Made by a program: the position numbers and the translations under genes | Assembly: GCA_051872415.1 (NCBI GenBank) | Contig: JBJEDW010000061.1 | Location: 3,986-35,985 of the forward strand | DNA: 32,000 nucleotides | Origin: Bacilli bacterium | Lineage (GTDB): Bacteria; Bacillota_I; Bacilli_A; RF39; UBA660 | Direction: 5' to 3' | The notes under the pieces: model-generated | Told to the model about the DNA's origin: nothing | The model's input: the letters and a program-made list of their open reading frames with translations, nothing else | Databases searched by the model: none | In this document: piece after piece, positions 10,670-20,489 of the stretch | Layout of the letters: every line of letters begins with the position of its first letter | Numbering within the stretch: the first letter of the stretch is position 1

Positions 10670-12739
10670 TTAATTACCACTTTTTTTGATAATTTCTTCG
10701 GCAATTGATTTTGGTACTTCTTCATAATGATCTGGTACCATTTGGAATGTTCCTCTACCTTGAGTATTTGATCTAATTGATGTTGCATATCCAAACATTT
10801 CTGATAGTGGAACCATTGCTGAAAACTTGATTGAGTTTCCACGTGATTCTTGTGATAGAGGTTTTCCACGTCTTGATGTTATATCCCCCATTACATTACC
10901 AAAGTATTCTTCTGGTACTACGATATCTACTTTCATGATTGGTTCAAGTATTACTGGTTTACATTTGTTTTTAGCTTCTTTAAGTGCTAAAGATGCTGCA
11001 ATTTTGAAAGCCATTTCACTTGAGTCTACATCATGGTATGATCCATCGTAAAGAGTTGCTTTTACATCAATCATTGGGAATCCTGCAAGTACTCCTGTTT
11101 TAAGAGCATCTTGAAGTCCTTTATCTACTACTGGGATGTATTCTCTTGGAACTACACCACCAACAATTTCGTCAACAAATTCATAACCTTTGTCATGATT
11201 TGGTTCGAATTTAATCCAAACATGTCCATATTGTCCACGTCCACCAGATTGTTTAATGTATTTACCTTCACATTCTCCAGTAGCTGTTAGAGTTTCGCGG
11301 TAAGCAACTTGTGGTTTACCTACGTTTGCTTCTACGTGGAATTCTCTTTTCATACGATCTACTAGTACGTCTAAGTGAAGTTCTCCGATACCGGCAATTA
11401 TTGTTTGACCAGTTTCTGTATCAGTATGAACTCTGAATGTTGGATCTTCTTCTGCTAGCTTTTGTAGTGCTAAAGCCATTTTATCTTGATCTGCTTTTGA
11501 TTTTGGTTCAATTGCAAGTTCAATAACTGGATCTGGTACTTCGATTGATTCTAGAATGATTGGTTTCTTTTCATCACATAAAGTATCTCCAGTTGTGGTA
11601 TTTTTTAGTCCTACTGCTGCAGCGATATCTCCAGTAAATACTTCAGATATTTCTGTTCTATCGTTGGCATGCATTTGGAGGATACGTCCTATTCTTTCTT
11701 TTACATTTTTAGTACTATTTAGAACATATGAACCACTTGATAATTTTCCTGAATAAACTCTAAAGAAAGTTAAACGTCCTACAAATGGATCTGTCATTAC
11801 TTTAAATGCTAAGGCACTAAATGGTTCAGTGTCTGAAGGATGTCTTTCGTCTTCTTCTCCTTTTGAGTTTATTCCTTTTATTGCAGGTATATCAAGTGGA
11901 GATGGTAAGTAATCAATTACTGCATCAAGTAGCAATTTTACTCCTTTGTTTCCAAGGGCTGTACCACACATGAATGGGAAGAATTCTGCTTTTAGAACTC
12001 CTGTTCTAATTGCACGTTTAATCATTTCTACTGATACTTCTTCTCCTTCAAGATATTTTTCCATTAATTCGTCATCGAATTCTGCAATTGCTTCAAGCAT
12101 TGTTGTTCTATATTCTTCTACTTTTTCTTTCATGTCTTCTGGAATAGCGATTTCTTCTGGATTTTCTTCTGCTCCACCATCATAGTGATAAGCTTTCATT
12201 GTAATAAGATCAATTATTCCATTAAATTCAGATTCTGCTCCAATAGGAAGTTCTATTGCTGCAGTGTTTGCTCCAAGTCTATCTTTAACACTTTGTAAGC
12301 TCATATAGAAATCTGCTCCTAATTTATCCATTTTGTTTGAGAAGATAATTCTAGGAACTTGATATTCGTTTGCTTGTCTCCATACTGTTTCACTTTGTGG
12401 TTCTACTCCAGCATTTGAGTCAAGTAATAATACTGCTCCATCTAGTACTCTTAAACTACGTTGTACTTCTACTGTGAAGTCTACGTGTCCTGGAGTATCG
12501 ATGATATTATATCTATATCCTTTCCAGAATGCTGTTGTTGCAGCGGATGTGATTGTAATACCACGTTCTTTTTCTTGTTCCATCCAGTCCATTTGAGATG
12601 CTCCATCATGAGTTTCTCCAATTTTATGAATTTTCTTTGTATGGAATAAAATACGTTCTGTTGCTGTTGTTTTTCCGGCATCTATGTGAGCCATGATTCC
12701 AAAGTTTCTTGTTTTTTCTAAACTAGTTTCTCTTGCCAT
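10670..12739 (-). CDS. fusA: Elongation factor G
   Basis: 689 aa with [17 protein letters not shown] and NKMD motifs, and full-length EF-G architecture. Confidence 0.99.
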
Positions 12740-12754
12740 ATTTTATTTCCTTTC

Positions 12755-13222
12755 CTACCATTTATAATGAGCGAATGCTTTGTTAGCTTCGGCCATTTTG
12801 TGAGTATCTTCACGTTTTTTAACTGCTGCACCTGTGTTATTTGATGCGTCAATTATTTCATTTGCTAGATTTTCAGCCATTCCATGACCACCACGTAATC
12901 TAGCATAATTTATTAACCATCTAAGTCCTAGAGTTTGAGATCTTTCGTTTGATACTTCAATTGGAACTTGATAGTTAGAACCTCCAACACGACGTGATTT
13001 AACTTCTAAAGCTGGTTTTATGTTTTCAAGTGCTTGGTTAAATACTTCCATTGGTTCTTTTCCAGTTTTTTCTTTTATCATATCAAAAGCACTGTAAAGT
13101 ATTTTTTCAGCCTTACCTCTTTTTCCATCTATCATCATTGAGTTTATTAACTTTGTAACAACTTTTGATTTATATATAGGATCTGGTAAAACATCTCTTT
13201 TAACTGCTCTTTTTTTACGCAC
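12755..13222 (-). CDS. rpsG: 30S ribosomal protein S7
   Basis: 155 aa with the canonical S7 sequence ([15 protein letters not shown]...). Confidence 0.98.
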
Positions 13223-13257
13223 TTTGTTTTCCTCCTTTATATTATTTTTTACTTATT

Positions 13258-13668
13258 TTATTTTCCTTTTTTTGTTCCGTATTTTGAACGAGCTTTTTTA
13301 CGATCTTTAACGCCTTGTGTATCCATTGTTCCACGAACAATATGATAACGTACACCGATAAGGTCTTTTACACGTCCACCACGAATTAATACAACGCTGT
13401 GTTCTTGAAGATTATGTCCTTCTCCAGGAATATAAGCATCTACTTCTTTACCGTTTGATAAACGTACACGTGCATATTTTCTTAATGCTGAGTTTGGTTT
13501 TTTTGGTGTTTTTGTTCCTACACGAATACATACTCCACGTTTTTGTGGTGATGCAGTATTAGTAGCTTTCTTTTGTAATGTGTTCATTCTAATTCCAAGT
13601 ACTGGAGATTTAGACTTTCTTGTTTTGTCTTTTCTCTTCTTTCTTACTAATTGATTTATTGTTGGCAT
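13258..13668 (-). CDS. rpsL: 30S ribosomal protein S12
   Basis: [13 protein letters not shown]...[11 protein letters not shown] trimmed the start to ATG 13668, which lies behind AAAGGAG. The track's upstream extension is not S12-like. Confidence 0.98.
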
Positions 13669-13760
13669 AACTTCTCCTTTCCACACACATATCCAGGTGT
13701 ATCATTTTTCTTAATTTTTATTAGGTTTAGCTAGTAAACCCAATAAAATTCAACGATAGT

Positions 13761-13789
13761 AATATATCATTTTACCTTTAGTTTGTCAA
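13761..13789 (-). promoter_or_regulatory. str operon promoter
   Basis: The minus strand reads TTGACA (13789-13784), a 17-nt spacer containing TG, then TATATT (13766-13761), about 95 nt upstream of rpsL. Confidence 0.65.
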
Positions 13790-13817
13790 TCGTTTTTGGT
13801 AAATTTTGTATACATTG

Positions 13818-14864
13818 TTATGATATGCAATTTTGATTATTGTATGAAGATTTAAATTTCATTTTATTAAAACATTTGTTTTTGAAATGATAACTATCCG
13901 CATATTTAATATGTCCAAGAAAAGATGCAATACTCATTTCAACTTTTGTAATATCTAAATTTTCTTGCTCGTATAAATTATTCCATGTTTTTATTTTCTT
14001 TATAATGGTTTTTTTGTTTCTTTTTCTTAATAGTACATAATCTTCATGGATTATGTATCCACAAAAATCACAACCTTTTTTAGAAGGATAATATTTACTT
14101 TTTTTATTTAATTCTAGTTTTAAGGTTTCTATTAAAAACTTTTCTATTTTTTTTAGAACTTCTTTAGCAGTTTTTTTATCTTTTACTAAAATAACAAAAT
14201 CATCCATATATCTACAGTAGCACTTTATTCTTAAACCAAATTTTATGTAGTGATCAAGTTCGTTTAAATAAATATTAGCAAAGTACTGACTTGTGTAATT
14301 GCCGATTGGTATTCCTTTTTCGTTAAAGTCTCCGATTATTGTTTTTGTAAGCTTTAAAAATTTTTTGTCTTTAAAGTTTTTCTTCAAAATGTTATATAAG
14401 GTTTCTCTATCAATGCTGAAAAAATACTTTTTAATATCAAGCTTTATTATATAATAATCACCATATTCTTTTCTCATACATCTCATATAGTGTTTTATCT
14501 TTTGGTATGATTTGTGAGTTCCTCTTCCTATTATACAAGCATAAGTGTCATTTATGAACTTAGGAACCATGTATGGTTTTAAAAATTCTTCTACATACCA
14601 CTGATGAATAACTCTATCTTTGATCGGAAGTGCTTTTATTAATCTTTCTTTTGGTTCATAAATTGTAAATTCTCTATATTTTGAAGGTGTGTAAGTTAAA
14701 TTTAAGAGTTCATCATATATAGATACTAAATTACTTTCTAAGTTTTGTTCAAAGTTTATTATTTCTTTTTTATTTATTTTACCGTCACGAGCTCTATAGA
14801 AAGCATTATATAAATTAGTAAACTCAAGTTTTTCGTCATACTTTACTTTAATCTTTTTTGGCAT
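13818..14864 (-). CDS. DGR reverse transcriptase
   Basis: 348 aa. It has the RT motif 4 variant PIGNYTSQYFANIYL (the IGxxxSQ form typical of DGR RTs) and motif 5 YCRYMDDFVIL (YMDD). It has no maturase or endonuclease extension. Confidence 0.93.
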   Translation of the reverse strand: MPKKIKVKYDEKLEFTNLYNAFYRARDGKINKKEIINFEQNLESNLVSIYDELLNLTYTPSKYREFTIYEPKERLIKALPIKDRVIHQWYVEEFLKPYMVPKFINDTYACIIGRGTHKSYQKIKHYMRCMRKEYGDYYIIKLDIKKYFFSIDRETLYNILKKNFKDKKFLKLTKTIIGDFNEKGIPIGNYTSQYFANIYLNELDHYIKFGLRIKCYCRYMDDFVILVKDKKTAKEVLKKIEKFLIETLKLELNKKSKYYPSKKGCDFCGYIIHEDYVLLRKRNKKTIIKKIKTWNNLYEQENLDITKVEMSIASFLGHIKYADSYHFKNKCFNKMKFKSSYNNQNCIS

Positions 14865-15208
14865 AGTCCTATCCAGTTATCTAAGTTTTTATCTACTGCA
14901 TTTATTTTTCTTGACCAAGCTTCGTAATTTTTAATGGAAATATATTTTTCTTTATACGATACTCTTATATAAAAAGAAATAACTTTTATATTTGATGAAA
15001 TTTCTTTTAGGTAACCTAATTTGAGGTTTATTTTGGTTTCGTTGTAAGCATAAATCAGATATTTATATCCTTTTTCTAATATTTTTCTAATATCACTGCA
15101 TAAAACATCACGTTCATATTTTGGAAATTTTTTCATTATGTTATATGAATAATAAAATAAATCTATATATCTATTGTAAATAATGGACTTTTCAAATTCT
15201 TTATTCAT
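14843..15208 (-). CDS. avd: Avd-like accessory variability determinant (four-helix-bundle protein)
   Basis: 121 aa and basic. The MKKFPKYERDVLCSDIR pattern resembles the 23S-rRNA-IVS/Avd family. It overlaps the RT start by 22 nt and the upstream ORF by 4 nt. Confidence 0.8.
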   Translation of the reverse strand: MNKEFEKSIIYNRYIDLFYYSYNIMKKFPKYERDVLCSDIRKILEKGYKYLIYAYNETKINLKLGYLKEISSNIKVISFYIRVSYKEKYISIKNYEAWSRKINAVDKNLDNWIGLCQKRLK

Positions 15209-15807: not shown

Positions 15808-15938
15808 AGGGCACCAGGACAACCACGCGAGCCGAGTTGTTACTGTTGGCATTACCGTTGTTGTTGTTCGAGTTCATCACGCCTGCGTTAGCCCCATTGT
15901 TGTAGTTACCGCCACGTATGAACCAAGGGTTCGAAGCA
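15808..15938 (-). repeat. DGR template repeat (TR)
   Basis: 131 nt homologous to 16196-16326. On the coding strand it is rich in AAC/AAT codons (14 of them). The 72-aa track ORF here (15746-15964) is just the TR read in the VR frame. Confidence 0.92.
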
Positions 15939-16173
15939 GAACGAGACACTTTACAAACTTTCACCTATCTTAACAAATGTTAAGACCATATTCCTTGCCA
16001 CTTCTTGCGAAGCGGAAGGCAATCGGGACCCTGGCGGGAAAAGCCCGCTTGCCTTGTGCTTTATTATATTATATTGTATCACTATTTTCGCCTGATTTTA
16101 GTAAACTAAAATCTAGGAAAAATAGTGTTATTGTTGTTTGCCTTGCAAAAATTGGACAGTCGTCCGAAAGGGG

Positions 16174-16193
16174 CATAGTCCTAACGGACTATG
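16174..16193 (-). promoter_or_regulatory. Perfect 8-bp stem / 4-nt loop hairpin immediately 3' of the VR and stop codon
   Basis: catagtcc-taac-ggactatg, abutting the TAG stop (16194-16196). It is in the position of the hairpin/cruciform that guides DGR target recognition. Confidence 0.6.
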
Positions 16194-18287
16194 CTAGGGC
16201 ACAAGGACAACCACGCGAGCCGAGAGGAAACCGTCGGCATCACCAGGGTAGTAGTCCGAGCTCATCACGCCAGCGCTAGCCCCAGAGTCGCAGCCACCGC
16301 CACGTCCGAACCAAGGGCGCGGAGCAAATGCTACATATCCATAATCCGAATACCAACCTGCCCCCGATGTTGCTGTTACTTCTTTTACTGCATCTCCTAA
16401 TTTACTTCTTTTCTTTTGGGTAATACTTGTTCCAAAACTATATTTATCTAAGTATTTATTTTCTGGATAAGCTATTCCTGTATAACTTGTATATGTTACA
16501 CTTTCATATAGAATTCCAGTGTATCCTGAGTGATATCCTACATAATCTCCTGTGTTACTATATCCTGCCATCATTGTTGTTCCATCATTTGATACTATGT
16601 TACCCATTACATATTCCCAAGCACCACCTGACATATCATATATTCCATAGATATTTCCTGTTGTTGATGCAACTTTACTCATATCTTTTGTCGAACTTTT
16701 GGTATTTGTATTGTAATTTAATAAGTATCCATCATAGGTATAGAAACCATAACTATTATACGTAGTAGTTGATGTTTGATCAGTATATGTACCATTTATC
16801 GGTGTTTGTCCTCCGACATTTCCTCCGCTTCTTCCTGTATAGTATGAAGAACTATTATTTATATTTATTTCTTTATTTATTCCATATTTTGAGTGTGATA
16901 GGTATGCTACTGCTCCCCATTCTTGGTTTTTCATCATATGAGTATCATCTGTAGATGCAAATCCATATTTGTTGCCACTATCATTCATTGCCATTATGTT
17001 AGTTTCAAACGAACTTACTTTTTGACTTCTTAAACTTTGTACATCTGGTTTTATTGTTATATCGCTTATTGTTCCTGTTGTTTCAAATTTTCCTACCCAC
17101 ATTCCTTCTAGTTCTTGAGATCCAAATGTAAAGGCTGGATGATTATATGTTTTACCATTACAAGTACTATCTGTACATGTAGCATTTGTACTTTTTAATT
17201 TACAGGTTTCAGATGGATCTCCATCTGTTCCTGATATACTATCAGTACATGATATTTCTCCAGTTGTTTCTGTTCCATTTTCAAAAGTTATTTCTATTTC
17301 TTGAGGTTCACTTGTTACTGTTCCATCAGCATTATAATTCCATACTTTATACTTATATCTTGGTATCCATACTTGCATTGTTAAAATATCATCCATTGGT
17401 ATTGTTGTACCTGGACTTGCATTTTTATATGTACTTCTATTGGTTTCACTTACTGTTACACTATTTGCCCACATCTTATCGTTATAATCATACCATTTGT
17501 ATGTTTTGCTATTATTTGTACTATCTGCTTTTTTCCATACCTCTGCATCTTCATCATAATATACTGCAATCATATTACTTGTTAATACTGGTACATTTGC
17601 CCCACTTATATCTAAGTTATCCCTTGTTTTTACTCCTACTTTAAATTTATATTGATATTTTTTTACTGTCTGTGTATTTTCATCATAGAATTTACTTGCT
17701 TCTACTTTACTATCTAACCATACTCTTAATTTAAACTTCTTACTTATCTCTCTTGTTGTTCCATCATGTGTGTTTGTATCTGCATATATCATCTTTTCAC
17801 TATTTAAATCACTTATTTTTGTCGGATTTAACAAAACGTTCCCTTCATAATCTGTTAGATATACTTTTACTTCATCATCTGTTAATGCTGTCATATTTGT
17901 ATCTACACTTAATTTTTCTAAATATACTCCATATGTTATATCTATTGGTTTACTTGTTGTTGTTTTAACTGAAAAATCAAATGTTTCACTTTGGTTTTTT
18001 CCATCTGTATCACTTATTGGAAGAGCATTTTCTATACTTATTATATTGCTGTTGCTTTCTAAAAACTCTAGTGATACATCTCCTGTATTTATTGTATTTG
18101 CACTTCCTATAAAACCATAATTCCACACAGCAAAACTTATGCCCACAGAAAGCATAAGTAATATTACAAGTAATAGAATTGTTATTATTTTCCTCTTATT
18201 ATCGCCTTTTTCTATAGAGGTTTTAGTTAAATTTGCCCCCCCCCCCCCAGACGAACATTTGTTTTGTTTTTTAGATAGTTTTTTCAT
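16194..18287 (-). CDS. DGR target protein: N-terminal membrane anchor, beta-rich ectodomain, C-terminal C-type-lectin/FGE-sulfatase-like domain carrying the VR
   Basis: 697 aa. The KRKIITILLLVILLMLSVGISFAVW segment is a TM helix. GIYDMSGGAWEYVMGN resembles the FGE/CLec motif GxYDMxGNxWEW. The C-terminal PWFGRGGG...ARVVV is typical of DGR VR scaffolds. Confidence 0.9.
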   Translation of the reverse strand: MKKLSKKQNKCSSGGGGANLTKTSIEKGDNKRKIITILLLVILLMLSVGISFAVWNYGFIGSANTINTGDVSLEFLESNSNIISIENALPISDTDGKNQSETFDFSVKTTTSKPIDITYGVYLEKLSVDTNMTALTDDEVKVYLTDYEGNVLLNPTKISDLNSEKMIYADTNTHDGTTREISKKFKLRVWLDSKVEASKFYDENTQTVKKYQYKFKVGVKTRDNLDISGANVPVLTSNMIAVYYDEDAEVWKKADSTNNSKTYKWYDYNDKMWANSVTVSETNRSTYKNASPGTTIPMDDILTMQVWIPRYKYKVWNYNADGTVTSEPQEIEITFENGTETTGEISCTDSISGTDGDPSETCKLKSTNATCTDSTCNGKTYNHPAFTFGSQELEGMWVGKFETTGTISDITIKPDVQSLRSQKVSSFETNIMAMNDSGNKYGFASTDDTHMMKNQEWGAVAYLSHSKYGINKEININNSSSYYTGRSGGNVGGQTPINGTYTDQTSTTTYNSYGFYTYDGYLLNYNTNTKSSTKDMSKVASTTGNIYGIYDMSGGAWEYVMGNIVSNDGTTMMAGYSNTGDYVGYHSGYTGILYESVTYTSYTGIAYPENKYLDKYSFGTSITQKKRSKLGDAVKEVTATSGAGWYSDYGYVAFAPRPWFGRGGGCDSGASAGVMSSDYYPGDADGFLSARVVVLVP
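16196..16326 (-). repeat. DGR variable repeat (VR), including the A-free 3' IMH-like block (16196-16223)
   Basis: Aligns without gaps to the TR. I count 24 substitutions at TR adenines. The A-free block TCGGCTCGCGTGGTTGTCCT is identical in both. Confidence 0.92.
18236..18248 (-). repeat. Homopolymeric G13 tract (C13 on the + strand) in codons 13-17 of the DGR target gene
   Basis: Read directly as gCCCCCCCCCCCCCag, encoding SGGGGA. The gene is in frame at this length. Confidence 0.95.
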
Positions 18288-18508
18288 AGTTTTCTACTCC
18301 TTTTGGTTCATTGTATTAATAATGAACGTGATTTTATTTATTATAGAAAAGTTGCAGTATCAATTTTGATACAATCATTTGTTTTCTACTTTCTTTACTT
18401 TAATATATTATGAAGAATAGATTATTTCAATCTTTTTTTATCAATTTTTGATTTTTGCACTTACTTACTTGTAAATACTTGAATTAATTAGTAGGTCAAA
18501 AAATATTA

Positions 18509-19404
18509 TTAGTATTGTAATACATTTAAATGTTTTAGTATGTTAGTAAGGATTGTTTTGTCTTCAATTAAGTTTATTGCGAAGCATTTTTTTCCTAGAT
18601 CTTTGAATGATGTCTTTGAATGATGAACCACAGTGATATAGAAGCTTTTTGTCTATAATTATAAATCTATCATGAAAAGCATTGCTAGTGAGTGCTGTTA
18701 TGTTGTGGTACTGACTATTATATTTTTAATCAACTCTTTGTTTAAATTTTTACTGTATACTTTTATTGGAACCTGGATGTTTCTTAATAAATCAAATAGC
18801 TTTTTTCCTGCGTAATTATCTATGATTATTATTTCTTCTTTGGCTTTTGATAATATATCAATCATTAGAGAGTAAGCATCGTATATTTGTCCTTCGAAGA
18901 AGATGTGATTATTTATTTTGTTATTATCTAGTTTTTTGAATATGATATCAAATTTATTATCGTGATCTATTATTTTTGTTTCTATATTAGATAATCTGTT
19001 ACTATAATTATTTGTTGCTATATATTTTTTCATTTCTACGAATGCATCCATTATTTTTATACTTATTTCTTCTGCTACAGGTGTTCTTAATATTGAACTT
19101 AGCATCGCTACTCCTTGCTCTTAAACACATATGTTCTATTATATTTTCTTCCACGAGTTTCTACAGTATTTTTTTTGGTTTCAGATTAAAACCAAAAAAT
19201 TTTTGATTCTTCTTCTGTTAATCTAAACATAAATCTTTCTGGGAATCTATTGATATGTCTTTTTACTGCCAAGTTTATAGATTTTGTCCCATTTTTACAA
19301 CCATAAAGCATAGCTAGGTCAGAATCAAGCATTACTTGTTTGCCTCTGATTTTATATATTAGATCTTCTATTTTTATATTATCTTTTGTTATTATTTCGT
19401 TCAT
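18509..19404 (-). pseudogene. ORF6N/KilA-N-type DNA-binding protein gene, decayed by at least four lesions
   Basis: The track fragments at 19186-19404 and 18698-19105 are pieces of one gene. After ...RFPERFMFRLTEEESKIFWF comes an in-frame TAA, followed by a frameshift before EQGVAMLSSILRTP. A further frameshift precedes AFHDRFIIIDKKLLYHCGSSFKD. A 13-nt tandem duplication (18600-18625) then breaks ...SFKDLGKKCFAINLIEDK.... Confidence 0.8.
18600..18625. repeat. 13-nt perfect tandem duplication (tctttgaatgatg x2)
   Basis: Read directly. Removing one copy restores the ORF6N C-terminal frame. Confidence 0.9.
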
Positions 19405-19535: not shown

Positions 19536-20384
19536 TTAGATGAGCTCTTCTATTTCTTCTTTAGAAAGACCAGTACATTCAGATATTGTACTTATATTCA
19601 TACCTTTATTAAGCATATTTTTTGCTATTTCATACTTTTCATTAGTTGAACCTTGTTCATAACCTTGACTCATTCCAACTTCAATTCCTTGTTCATATCC
19701 TTCTTTAATTAGAGTATTATGTACCATTTCTGCGTCTTTTTCTTTCGAGACTACCTCTATAAACTCTGGATCTTCATTTAGTTTTTCTATCTTTTCTTTG
19801 TACTTTTCCATCATTCTATCTCCTTTGCATACCACATCTAAATCTTTTGGCTCTAAATCTAACATTAAAAAATATTTATACTCTAGAGCCTTTTTCTTAT
19901 CTCCATGATACCACATATTCATTATTTTATCCATGTTTATTTCTATTATTTTAAGTTTATCACAGTAACATTTATTGTTATCTTTATCATACATCACGTA
20001 ACAAGACTTGATATCTTTTTCTATTCCTAGTCCCCATGTTATATTAAGCTGAATATGCATTTTAGTATCTAAATAGTCGTCACCTTTAAACACACTATTT
20101 GAAAAAACTGATGAGATATAAGCAAAGTTTCTTATAGGAAGAGAATTGTAATATCCATTGTTTATTTCTAAGTTAATAGTTTCAGTTTTTGTTTTAACAA
20201 GGACATCTAGTGTTTTAGTCTTTATTTTAATATTTGGTTTTTCAAGTTCTTTTGGATCAAGTACTAGTTCTTCAATACTTAAATCTAAGGTCTTTTCTAA
20301 AAAATATTTAAGCAAATCTTTTTGAGATTCACATCCAATAGCATTTTTAAATCCAGCATCGTATCTTGCGGTGTAAAAAGCCAT
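19536..20384 (-). CDS. Rpn-family recombination-promoting nuclease / PD-(D/E)XK putative transposase
   Basis: YDAGFKNAIG...DLLKYFLEKTL...LDVLVKTKTETINLEINN forms the nuclease core. C-terminal repeats EGYEQGIEVGMSQGYEQG are followed by the IAKNMLNKGMNISTISECTGLSKEEIEEL helix-turn-helix. I chose the start at ATG 20384, behind GGAGGTG. Confidence 0.85.
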   Translation of the reverse strand: MAFYTARYDAGFKNAIGCESQKDLLKYFLEKTLDLSIEELVLDPKELEKPNIKIKTKTLDVLVKTKTETINLEINNGYYNSLPIRNFAYISSVFSNSVFKGDDYLDTKMHIQLNITWGLGIEKDIKSCYVMYDKDNNKCYCDKLKIIEINMDKIMNMWYHGDKKKALEYKYFLMLDLEPKDLDVVCKGDRMMEKYKEKIEKLNEDPEFIEVVSKEKDAEMVHNTLIKEGYEQGIEVGMSQGYEQGSTNEKYEIAKNMLNKGMNISTISECTGLSKEEIEELI

Positions 20385-20489
20385 TTTATTCACCTCCAAA
20401 AGCACTATAAACTAAATAAAATAAGATGTAAAATGACCATTTAGAAGATTTGATCAAAAGAAAAAGATGAAACATAAATATTGGTATAA

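Follow-up and report, generated by a model that had tools for sequence, protein, structure and literature searches.

Does a run of 13 guanines near the start of a gene whose 3′ end is diversified by a diversity-generating retroelement (DGR) act as an on/off switch of that gene? The question is raised by a 32,000-nucleotide stretch of DNA (hereafter, the window) from a Bacilli bacterium of the RF39/UBA660 lineage (assembly GCA_051872415.1, contig JBJEDW010000061.1, positions 3,986 to 35,985 of the forward strand). The window contains a DGR whose target gene encodes a protein of 697 aa, and the G13 tract lies within the first codons of this gene. A first-pass annotation, made from the letters alone, had read the tract as a likely slipped-strand phase switch on top of hypervariation. 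Based on comparisons with related genomes, we propose, with a probability of about 0.8, that the G13 tract is a functional, slippage-prone translational phase-variation (contingency) switch of the DGR target gene. Such a switch is classical in its mechanism; the novelty lies in finding it on a DGR target and in its retention as a 5′ cassette throughout a large family of surface proteins of uncultured gut Bacilli.

The G13 tract and its reading frame

The G13 tract (Table 1) is the only G/C run of six or more nucleotides in the window, which has a G+C content of 25–35%; four runs of 5 come next in length. By chance, between ~1e-6 (independent, identically distributed bases) and 4e-6 (first-order Markov model) G/C runs of 13 or longer would be expected in the window, and the tract is accordingly as non-random as first annotated. 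The coding strand of the gene opens with ATG AAA AAA CTA TCT AAA AAA CAA AAC AAA TGT TCG TCT GGG GGG GGG GGG GCA AAT TTA. The tract begins 39 nt past the primary ATG and yields residues S13, G14–G17, and A18. The peptide SGGGGA had been read correctly at the outset, but its assignment to codons 13–17 was not exact. In length, the tract exceeds the ~7–8 G/C residues from which slippage becomes frequent, and it is over-represented relative to both base composition and codon usage. It also sits so early in the open reading frame (ORF) that any length change other than a multiple of three truncates the product.

Of the 443 Gly codons in the remaining ORFs of the window, 12 (2.7%) are GGG, and the probability of four consecutive GGG codons is ~5e-7. 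This exclusive use of GGG points to selection on the DNA homopolymer. If the glycines instead served as a structural linker within the cytoplasmic tail or signal peptide, with changes in length playing no role, this would agree with the G3–G5 that in-frame tracts encode in a tail predicted to be disordered. We consider such a linker highly implausible in view of the GGG bias, the existence of out-of-frame alleles, and the orthologues in which the Gly run is swapped for GRGVE, PGGLE, or GEGVE and the gene is nevertheless retained.

The consequences of slippage were simulated. With G10, G13, and G16, the reading frame continues into the full-length protein, whereas G12, G11, and G14 give peptides of 19, 20, and 21 aa, respectively, and the G15 product also falls within 19–21 aa. 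The assembled allele is in frame with the 697-aa body and is therefore ON, as the first-pass annotation had stated. Its claim that a slip of ±1 truncates the protein also holds; the peptides are shorter than most of the 20–30 residues it had estimated. In the AlphaFold2 model of the target protein, residues 1–28 are disordered and residues 30–51 form a helix, followed by a beta-rich domain that is modelled confidently. The mean predicted local distance difference test (pLDDT) score of the model is 48, and the C-terminal half (pLDDT < 40) is unusable. The tract lies in the N-terminal tail before the predicted helix, and its description as upstream of the transmembrane (TM) anchor stands. The motif preceding the tract holds a second ATG (AAATGTTCG; Table 1), from which a weak third expression state is possible. 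One homologue (P0131) is annotated from this motif-internal start ('MFVGGGVELTE'), which is restricted to the ATGTTCG sub-clade of the motif.

A simple sequence repeat (SSR) in a promoter spacer, as in transcriptional phase variation, was ruled out because the tract sits inside the ORF, downstream of the Shine–Dalgarno (SD) sequence and ATG; the nearest promoter-like site is at 18430–18402. A role as a G-quadruplex or as a cis-element of the DGR was ruled out by position, as the tract is 1.9 kb from the variable region (VR), and it is also present on genes with no nearby DGR.

Exact-protein look-ups of the neighboring 135-aa and ORF6N genes for assemblies of the same strain returned only the Logan assembly L007 (run SRR30616767), in which the tract is likewise G13 and 1,622 nt are 100% identical to the window. 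The assemblies L001–L003 end short of the tract. Look-ups of P0015 and P0077, aimed at paralogues in the same metagenome-assembled genome (MAG), gave no record. Poly-G is a frequent artefact of some Illumina data, and the exact length of a run is error-prone from 10 upwards. An artefact of sequencing or assembly, through poly-G from two-color chemistry or a chimeric join, is still barely credible as the origin of the tract. In more than 40 loci, taken from independent studies and different assemblers, the tract recurs in frame at one and the same codon of a conserved gene, and its flanks are conserved as well.

Tract length and frame among orthologues and paralogues

Orthologues differ in both tract length and frame (Table 1). 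L006 and L119 come from near-identical strains of separate samples. Between positions −1300 and +1426, counted from the ATG, one substitution and a 2-nt indel in the tract are all that distinguishes them; the indel switches the frame and turns the gene off in L119. Their other differences are confined to the 3′ third of the gene, including the VR, and the near-identical stretch ends at codon 475. This pair is the strongest single result pointing to a switch. A second comparison, between L114 (G8, OFF) and L115–117 (G6, ON), concerns loci that share 96.5% identity and both lie in synteny downstream of pheT. The short tracts of L114/L115 and L006/L119 are reliably called by Illumina short reads. 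Tract lengths that differ between close strains, with ON and OFF alleles, were found in these orthologue pairs, from strains other than that of the window. The informative pairs were drawn from cluster members after an initial set of 45 tracts, among which an all-against-all blastn for strain-level pairs found none above 93% identity. A protein search with residues 45–230, designed to catch both ON and OFF forms, gave 10 distant matches only.

Among the observations that would refute a switch, the first-pass annotation had named orthologues in which the tract is interrupted by non-G bases without loss of the gene. Such orthologues were found, but they do not refute the switch. They show that the protein can function without the tract, as at other contingency loci, and that lineages with a short or interrupted tract can be locked ON.

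Every out-of-frame copy keeps an unbroken body of 340–900 codons in very AT-rich DNA. The ratio of nonsynonymous to synonymous substitution rates (dN/dS), calculated with the last 60 codons excluded, was 0.34 for the OFF–OFF pair L008/L005. Pairs including the in-frame window allele gave 0.21–0.33, and the ON/ON pair of the window and L006 gave 0.26. The OFF alleles thus retain an intact reading frame under selection, which implies reversibility. Intact bodies together with dN/dS values like those of ON pairs indicate that the frameshift is evolutionarily transient, as expected of a reversible switch. Alternatively, the tract could be a non-adaptive mutational hot spot inherited from a duplicated 5′ end, with the OFF paralogues on their way to becoming pseudogenes. 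A genome with many paralogues (at least 10 on one 706-kb contig) could tolerate their loss, about two thirds of the tract copies are out of frame, and the tract is lost or interrupted in some lineages. This explanation is very unlikely, given that no OFF allele carries a second disabling mutation anywhere in its body, that the OFF–OFF pair has the low dN/dS noted above, and that the tract and its flanking motif are kept across species, with the rare TCG and GGG codons retained.

The public annotations of the OFF alleles P0003 (L004/L008), P0012 (L114), P0013 (L005), and P0135 (L119) are N-terminally truncated. Their annotated starts (ATG; GTG in L004) lie within or after the membrane segment, and the deposited proteins are anchorless and resemble shorter family members. 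Because gene callers annotate OFF alleles in this way, the true architecture and copy number of the family are under-reported.

The wider family was surveyed with one genome per GTDB species, which gave 451 related loci, 80 of which (554 kb) were fetched. All 24 of the G/C runs of at least 7 in this DNA are poly-G on the coding strand, from G9 to G13, and nearly all of them come after the motif AACAAATATTCGTMT, a few codons past the SD and ATG at the 5′ end of family genes. Of the 67 family genes whose 5′ end is complete, 19 have the tract. Over 39 tracts, the columns of the motif are 62–95% conserved, and the tract lengths are G8 (1 tract), G9 (9), G10 (15), G11 (9), G12 (2), and G13 (3). TCG, which the motif contains, accounts for 2.75% of all Ser codons of the window. 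Metagenome contigs, when scanned for the cassette pattern, gave further copies of G8–G10, both ON and OFF, and the same scan of viral contigs gave no match. The cassette is more conserved than the gene bodies, its flanks being identical where the bodies are 70–89% identical or less; this is typical of phase-variable multigene families. The cassette of SD, ATG, NKYS, poly-G, and QNTYKINPLF, together with the anchor, was also observed on proteins of ~340 aa without similarity to the DGR-type C-terminal domain (Table 1), and its distribution thus extends beyond the family of DGR targets.

Relative to the SD-proximal ATG, 6 of 22 tracts are in frame, 10 are at +1, and 6 are at +2. When the frame was assigned by the conserved motif and the metagenome copies were included, 10 of 26 were in frame, a share no different from one third (p = 0.68). 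Under this cassette frame, every G9 and G12 copy is ON, every G10 and G11 copy is OFF, and G13 is ON twice and OFF once. The OFF peptides in the family survey are 12–36 aa long. Such occupancy is what would be expected if most paralogues were silent at any time, each switching independently. A programmed ribosomal frameshift site was rejected because the frames are mixed (6/10/6 and 10/14/2 for in frame/+1/+2 in the two counts) and in-frame alleles are common.

Several points weigh against the switch. The sole other assembly covering the tract of the window, L007, also has G13 and probably derives from the source data of the MAG itself, so the support lies in comparison between genomes. By cassette frame, 14 OFF copies are at +1 and 2 at +2, which is unexpected under unbiased switching. 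The excess may reflect a mutational (insertion) bias, non-independent copies, or rescue by +1 frameshifting or RNA-polymerase slippage. Tract lengths are also uniform by sample: all five cassette copies in assembly ERZ857629 (L089, L094, L095, L096, and L101) are G10 (OFF, +1), and three of the four in ERZ779888 (L088, L097, L104, and L113) are G9 (ON). This uniformity may be technical, and where metagenomes are assembled from short reads at low coverage, tracts of G10 or longer are open to miscalling. Finally, among the fetched loci, an adjacent reverse transcriptase (RT) occurs only at the window, L010, and L072. As L010 and L072 have the RT but no tract, a poly-G switch and a DGR in cis on one gene are directly seen only in the window.

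The +1 excess bears on a further alternative, in which the tract acts as a decoding rheostat. The rare GGG run, or the G-run in the template, would promote +1 frameshifting or RNA-polymerase slippage, so that out-of-frame alleles give a reduced amount of full-length protein and the tract sets the dosage. Transcriptional slippage on long homopolymers is well established. The predominance of +1 among OFF alleles, the rarity of GGG, which would favor pausing, and the purifying selection on OFF bodies are all in line with a rheostat. We nevertheless regard it as unlikely. Many alleles are in frame (6/22 and 10/26), the others include both +1 and +2 offsets, 5 of the 14 +1 cases come from one assembly, and no conserved downstream stimulatory structure was seen, although none was sought. 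Moreover, a rheostat is compatible with switching at the DNA level and does not exclude it.

The slipped-strand switch, as the first-pass annotation had read the tract, agrees with all the comparative tests run, namely, the orthologue lengths, the strain pair, the OFF bodies, and the family-wide distribution. Here, we propose how it would operate. Slipped-strand mispairing during replication would add or remove G residues. At G10, G13, or G16, translation from the SD-proximal ATG would proceed through a short poly-Gly in the N-terminal tail and the membrane anchor into the 680-residue body (ON), and other tract lengths would lead to a stop after 18–21 residues (OFF). The cassette (SD, ATG, ...N-K-Y/C-S-x, and poly-G) heads many paralogues in a lineage of uncultured gut Bacilli with low G+C content and small genomes. 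Which members of the family are expressed would therefore vary stochastically from cell to cell, as for Neisseria opa genes or the poly-G loci of Campylobacter. In the gene of the window, the DGR separately diversifies the C-terminal binding site, making on/off switching and hypervariation two independent layers. A high rate of reversible switching, surface exposure, and an adaptive value are presumed in this scheme. A more ambitious version, to which we give slightly less than even odds, describes a modular switch cassette on an anchored family of at least 451 loci with DGR-type C-termini. A random subset of paralogues would be expressed per cell, the DGR would rewrite at least one of them, and the +1 excess among OFF copies would hint at leaky decoding. 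The result would be antigenic or receptor variation that stacks SSR switching, paralogue choice, and retroelement mutagenesis, a combination that is not known to have been reported for DGRs.

The DGR, the target protein, and the genomic surroundings

The identification of the gene as a DGR target in the first-pass annotation was confirmed. A VR at its 3′ end is matched by a nearby template region (TR) with mismatches concentrated at adenines, and genes for an RT and bAvd are adjacent (Table 1). The accessory MutS_I-like protein has identical copies in three sequencing runs, and the DGR of this strain is found in SRR30616767, SRR30616778, and ERR9880678. Right after the VR lies an inverted repeat with perfect 9-bp arms and a 4-nt loop (GCATAGTCC/GGACTATGC). 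It overlaps the stop codon of the gene and resembles the hairpin/cruciform elements that mark DGR target sites. A 52-nt element just downstream of the VR, which includes an inverted repeat, is 92–94% conserved among paralogues on one 706-kb contig. Targeting of poly-G paralogues in trans by a remote DGR was considered in the genome CAKORJ, where good matches to the TR are limited to the cis VR (17/20 mismatches at A) and one paralogue (16/27 at A), and the poly-G paralogue L027 matches over 54 nt only.

Table 1. Coordinates of features in the window, tract states of orthologues, and positions in related loci (given with the locus name)
Feature	Position	Strand	Remarks
DGR target gene, 697 aa	16194..18287	-	N-terminal tail, TM segment, beta-rich domain, conserved C-terminal domain ending in VR
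Shine–Dalgarno AGGAG	18297..18301	-	9 nt upstream of ATG
Primary ATG start	18285..18287	-	39 nt upstream of tract; frame shared with gene body at G10, G13, G16
Pre-tract motif AACAAATGTTCGTCT	18249..18263	-	Family consensus AACAAATATTCGTMT, read N-K-Y/C-S-S/Y; contains TCG Ser codon, rare elsewhere in window
Alternative ATG within motif (AAATGTTCG)	18256..18258	-	10 nt before tract, without SD; body frame at G9, G12, G15
G13 homopolymer (C13 on + strand)	18236..18248	-	GGG ×4 = codons 14–17, and first base of codon 18; slippage-prone tract; in frame
Post-slip stop TAA	18229-18227	-	Tract lengths divisible by 3 (G9, G12, G15); peptide ...GGGGQI*
Post-slip stop TAA	18225-18223	-	G8, G11, G14; peptide ...GGGGKFN*
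Hydrophobic segment KIITILLLVILLMLSVGISFAVW	18123..18200	-	Residues ~30–55, after Lys-rich tail carrying tract; signal-anchor or signal peptide
Variable region (VR)	16196..16326	-	3′ end of target gene
Inverted repeat	16173-16194		Perfect, 9 bp, 4-nt loop
Template region (TR), 131 nt	15808..15938	-	79% match to VR; 24/29 mismatches at TR adenines
MutS_I-like gene, 116 aa	15205-15555	-	MutS domain I match E=3e-11; upstream of bAvd and RT
bAvd	14843-15208	-	E=1.3e-15
Reverse transcriptase	13818-14864	-	RVT_1 E=2.7e-20
RT and rpsL-rpsG-fusA	10670-14864	-	RT end to rpsL 131 nt
72-aa ORF6N-domain ORF, then 135-aa ORF	18698-19404	-	Upstream of target gene
PD-(D/E)XK_2 transposase-like gene	19536-20405	-	Adjoins putative split ORF6N gene
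Tract of L008 (= L004)			G10+T; out of frame, TAA after 20 codons
Tract of L005			G10+T; out of frame, TAA after 20 codons
Tract of L114			G8; out of frame
Tract of L115-117 (three samples)			G6; in frame
Tract of L006			G6-T-G7; in frame
Tract of L119			G4-T-G7; out of frame
Tract of L118			G3AGAG4; in frame
VR-downstream element	L072 5290-5341; L014 4927-4978; L051 5331-5382; L030 5942-6108		Up to 167 nt (L030)
~340-aa cassette proteins	L026 7795; L088 7960; L096 269; L099 (-) 8072; L101 5490; L105		

The homologues of the target protein number more than 6,400, and the genomes of its relatives are labeled uncultured Bacilli, Tenericutes, Mycoplasma, or Clostridium sp. CAG:914. For a C-type-lectin/FGE-like fold that would display the VR, Pfam gave only a weak FGE-sulfatase match below the cut-off (E = 0.0017), and sequence and profile searches of the PDB with the target protein gave nothing meaningful. 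A SipW-type signal peptide was considered for the 'SYALFSD' motif after the TM segment, but NCBIfam gave no match. Logan contigs break inside the gene body, L001 and L002 at 16406 and L007 at 18017, probably because the central domain is repeated among paralogues in the same genome.

The DGR cassette lies directly upstream of rpsL-rpsG-fusA in the same direction, which is an unusual chromosomal neighborhood for a retroelement. On the other side, upstream of the target gene, the 72-aa ORF6N-domain ORF and the 135-aa ORF appear to be one split gene. Together with the adjoining transposase-like gene, it may be mobile-element debris.

Comparison with known contingency loci and DGRs

Campylobacter jejuni NCTC11168 has 29 poly-G/C loci of at least 7 that phase-vary (PMC4965091). 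As in the window family, the C. jejuni loci reside in an AT-rich genome otherwise devoid of long G/C homopolymers, and tracts of G8–G13 within ORFs toggle the frame by their length (PMC4965091, PMC8437040). Both systems also have many loci per genome, which in C. jejuni give combinatorial 'phasotypes'. The C. jejuni tracts are mostly in unrelated genes for glycosylation, capsule, lipooligosaccharide, and flagellar modification, whereas in the window family one conserved 5′ cassette is found on paralogues of a single membrane-anchored family, at least one copy of which is a DGR target.

In Neisseria, each opa paralogue has CTCTT repeats in its signal-peptide coding region, and most copies are OFF at any time. 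The opa genes share with the window family the organization as paralogous surface-protein genes, each with its own repeat in the leader region and independent frame switching. They differ in that the repeat is pentameric and that variation arises by recombination between paralogues, not from a retroelement. In Haemophilus influenzae lic1, CAAT repeats are combined with alternative in-frame ATGs. The window may similarly have a three-state switch because its second ATG lies in another frame just upstream of the repeat; unlike in lic1, this ATG has no SD and is limited to one sub-clade of the motif.

Among the Mollicutes, the Vaa protein of M. hominis phase-varies through poly-A. The surface proteins of these small-genome, low-G+C relatives of Bacilli resemble the window family in having an SSR in the coding region and a consensus that is often 'off' with an intact downstream ORF. 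In Ca. Mycoplasma girerdii, BspA-like surface proteins have dinucleotide repeats, and the metagenome consensus, determined from reads, is 'off' with intact ORFs (PMC5476646). The repeat type and protein family are different there, no DGR is involved, and read heterogeneity was measured, whereas the window family is known from assemblies.

Canonical DGRs include those of Bordetella phage BPP-1 Mtd, Treponema TvpA, and Legionella LdtA. Like them, the window DGR has an RT, Avd, a hairpin just after the VR, and a TR/VR pair whose mismatches at the C-terminal end of the target are adenine-specific. It departs from them in the MutS_I-like accessory gene, the rpsL neighborhood, and the proposed SSR switch in the target. 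Full-text searches of the literature on DGRs, phase variation, and related terms, judged by titles and abstracts, turned up no description of an SSR frame switch in a DGR target gene.

DGRs are usually discussed as diversifying a constitutively present target, and the control of target expression is largely unknown. The signature AACAAATATTCGTNT followed by G9 or more could make the expression states of dozens of surface-protein genes in uncultured gut Bacilli readable from metagenomic reads, and selection on these proteins by the host (immunoglobulin A) or by phages would thereby become testable in existing time series. If the proposed function is correct, an SSR switch ahead of a DGR target would mean that the population hedges twice, first on whether the protein is displayed and second on which binding site it carries.

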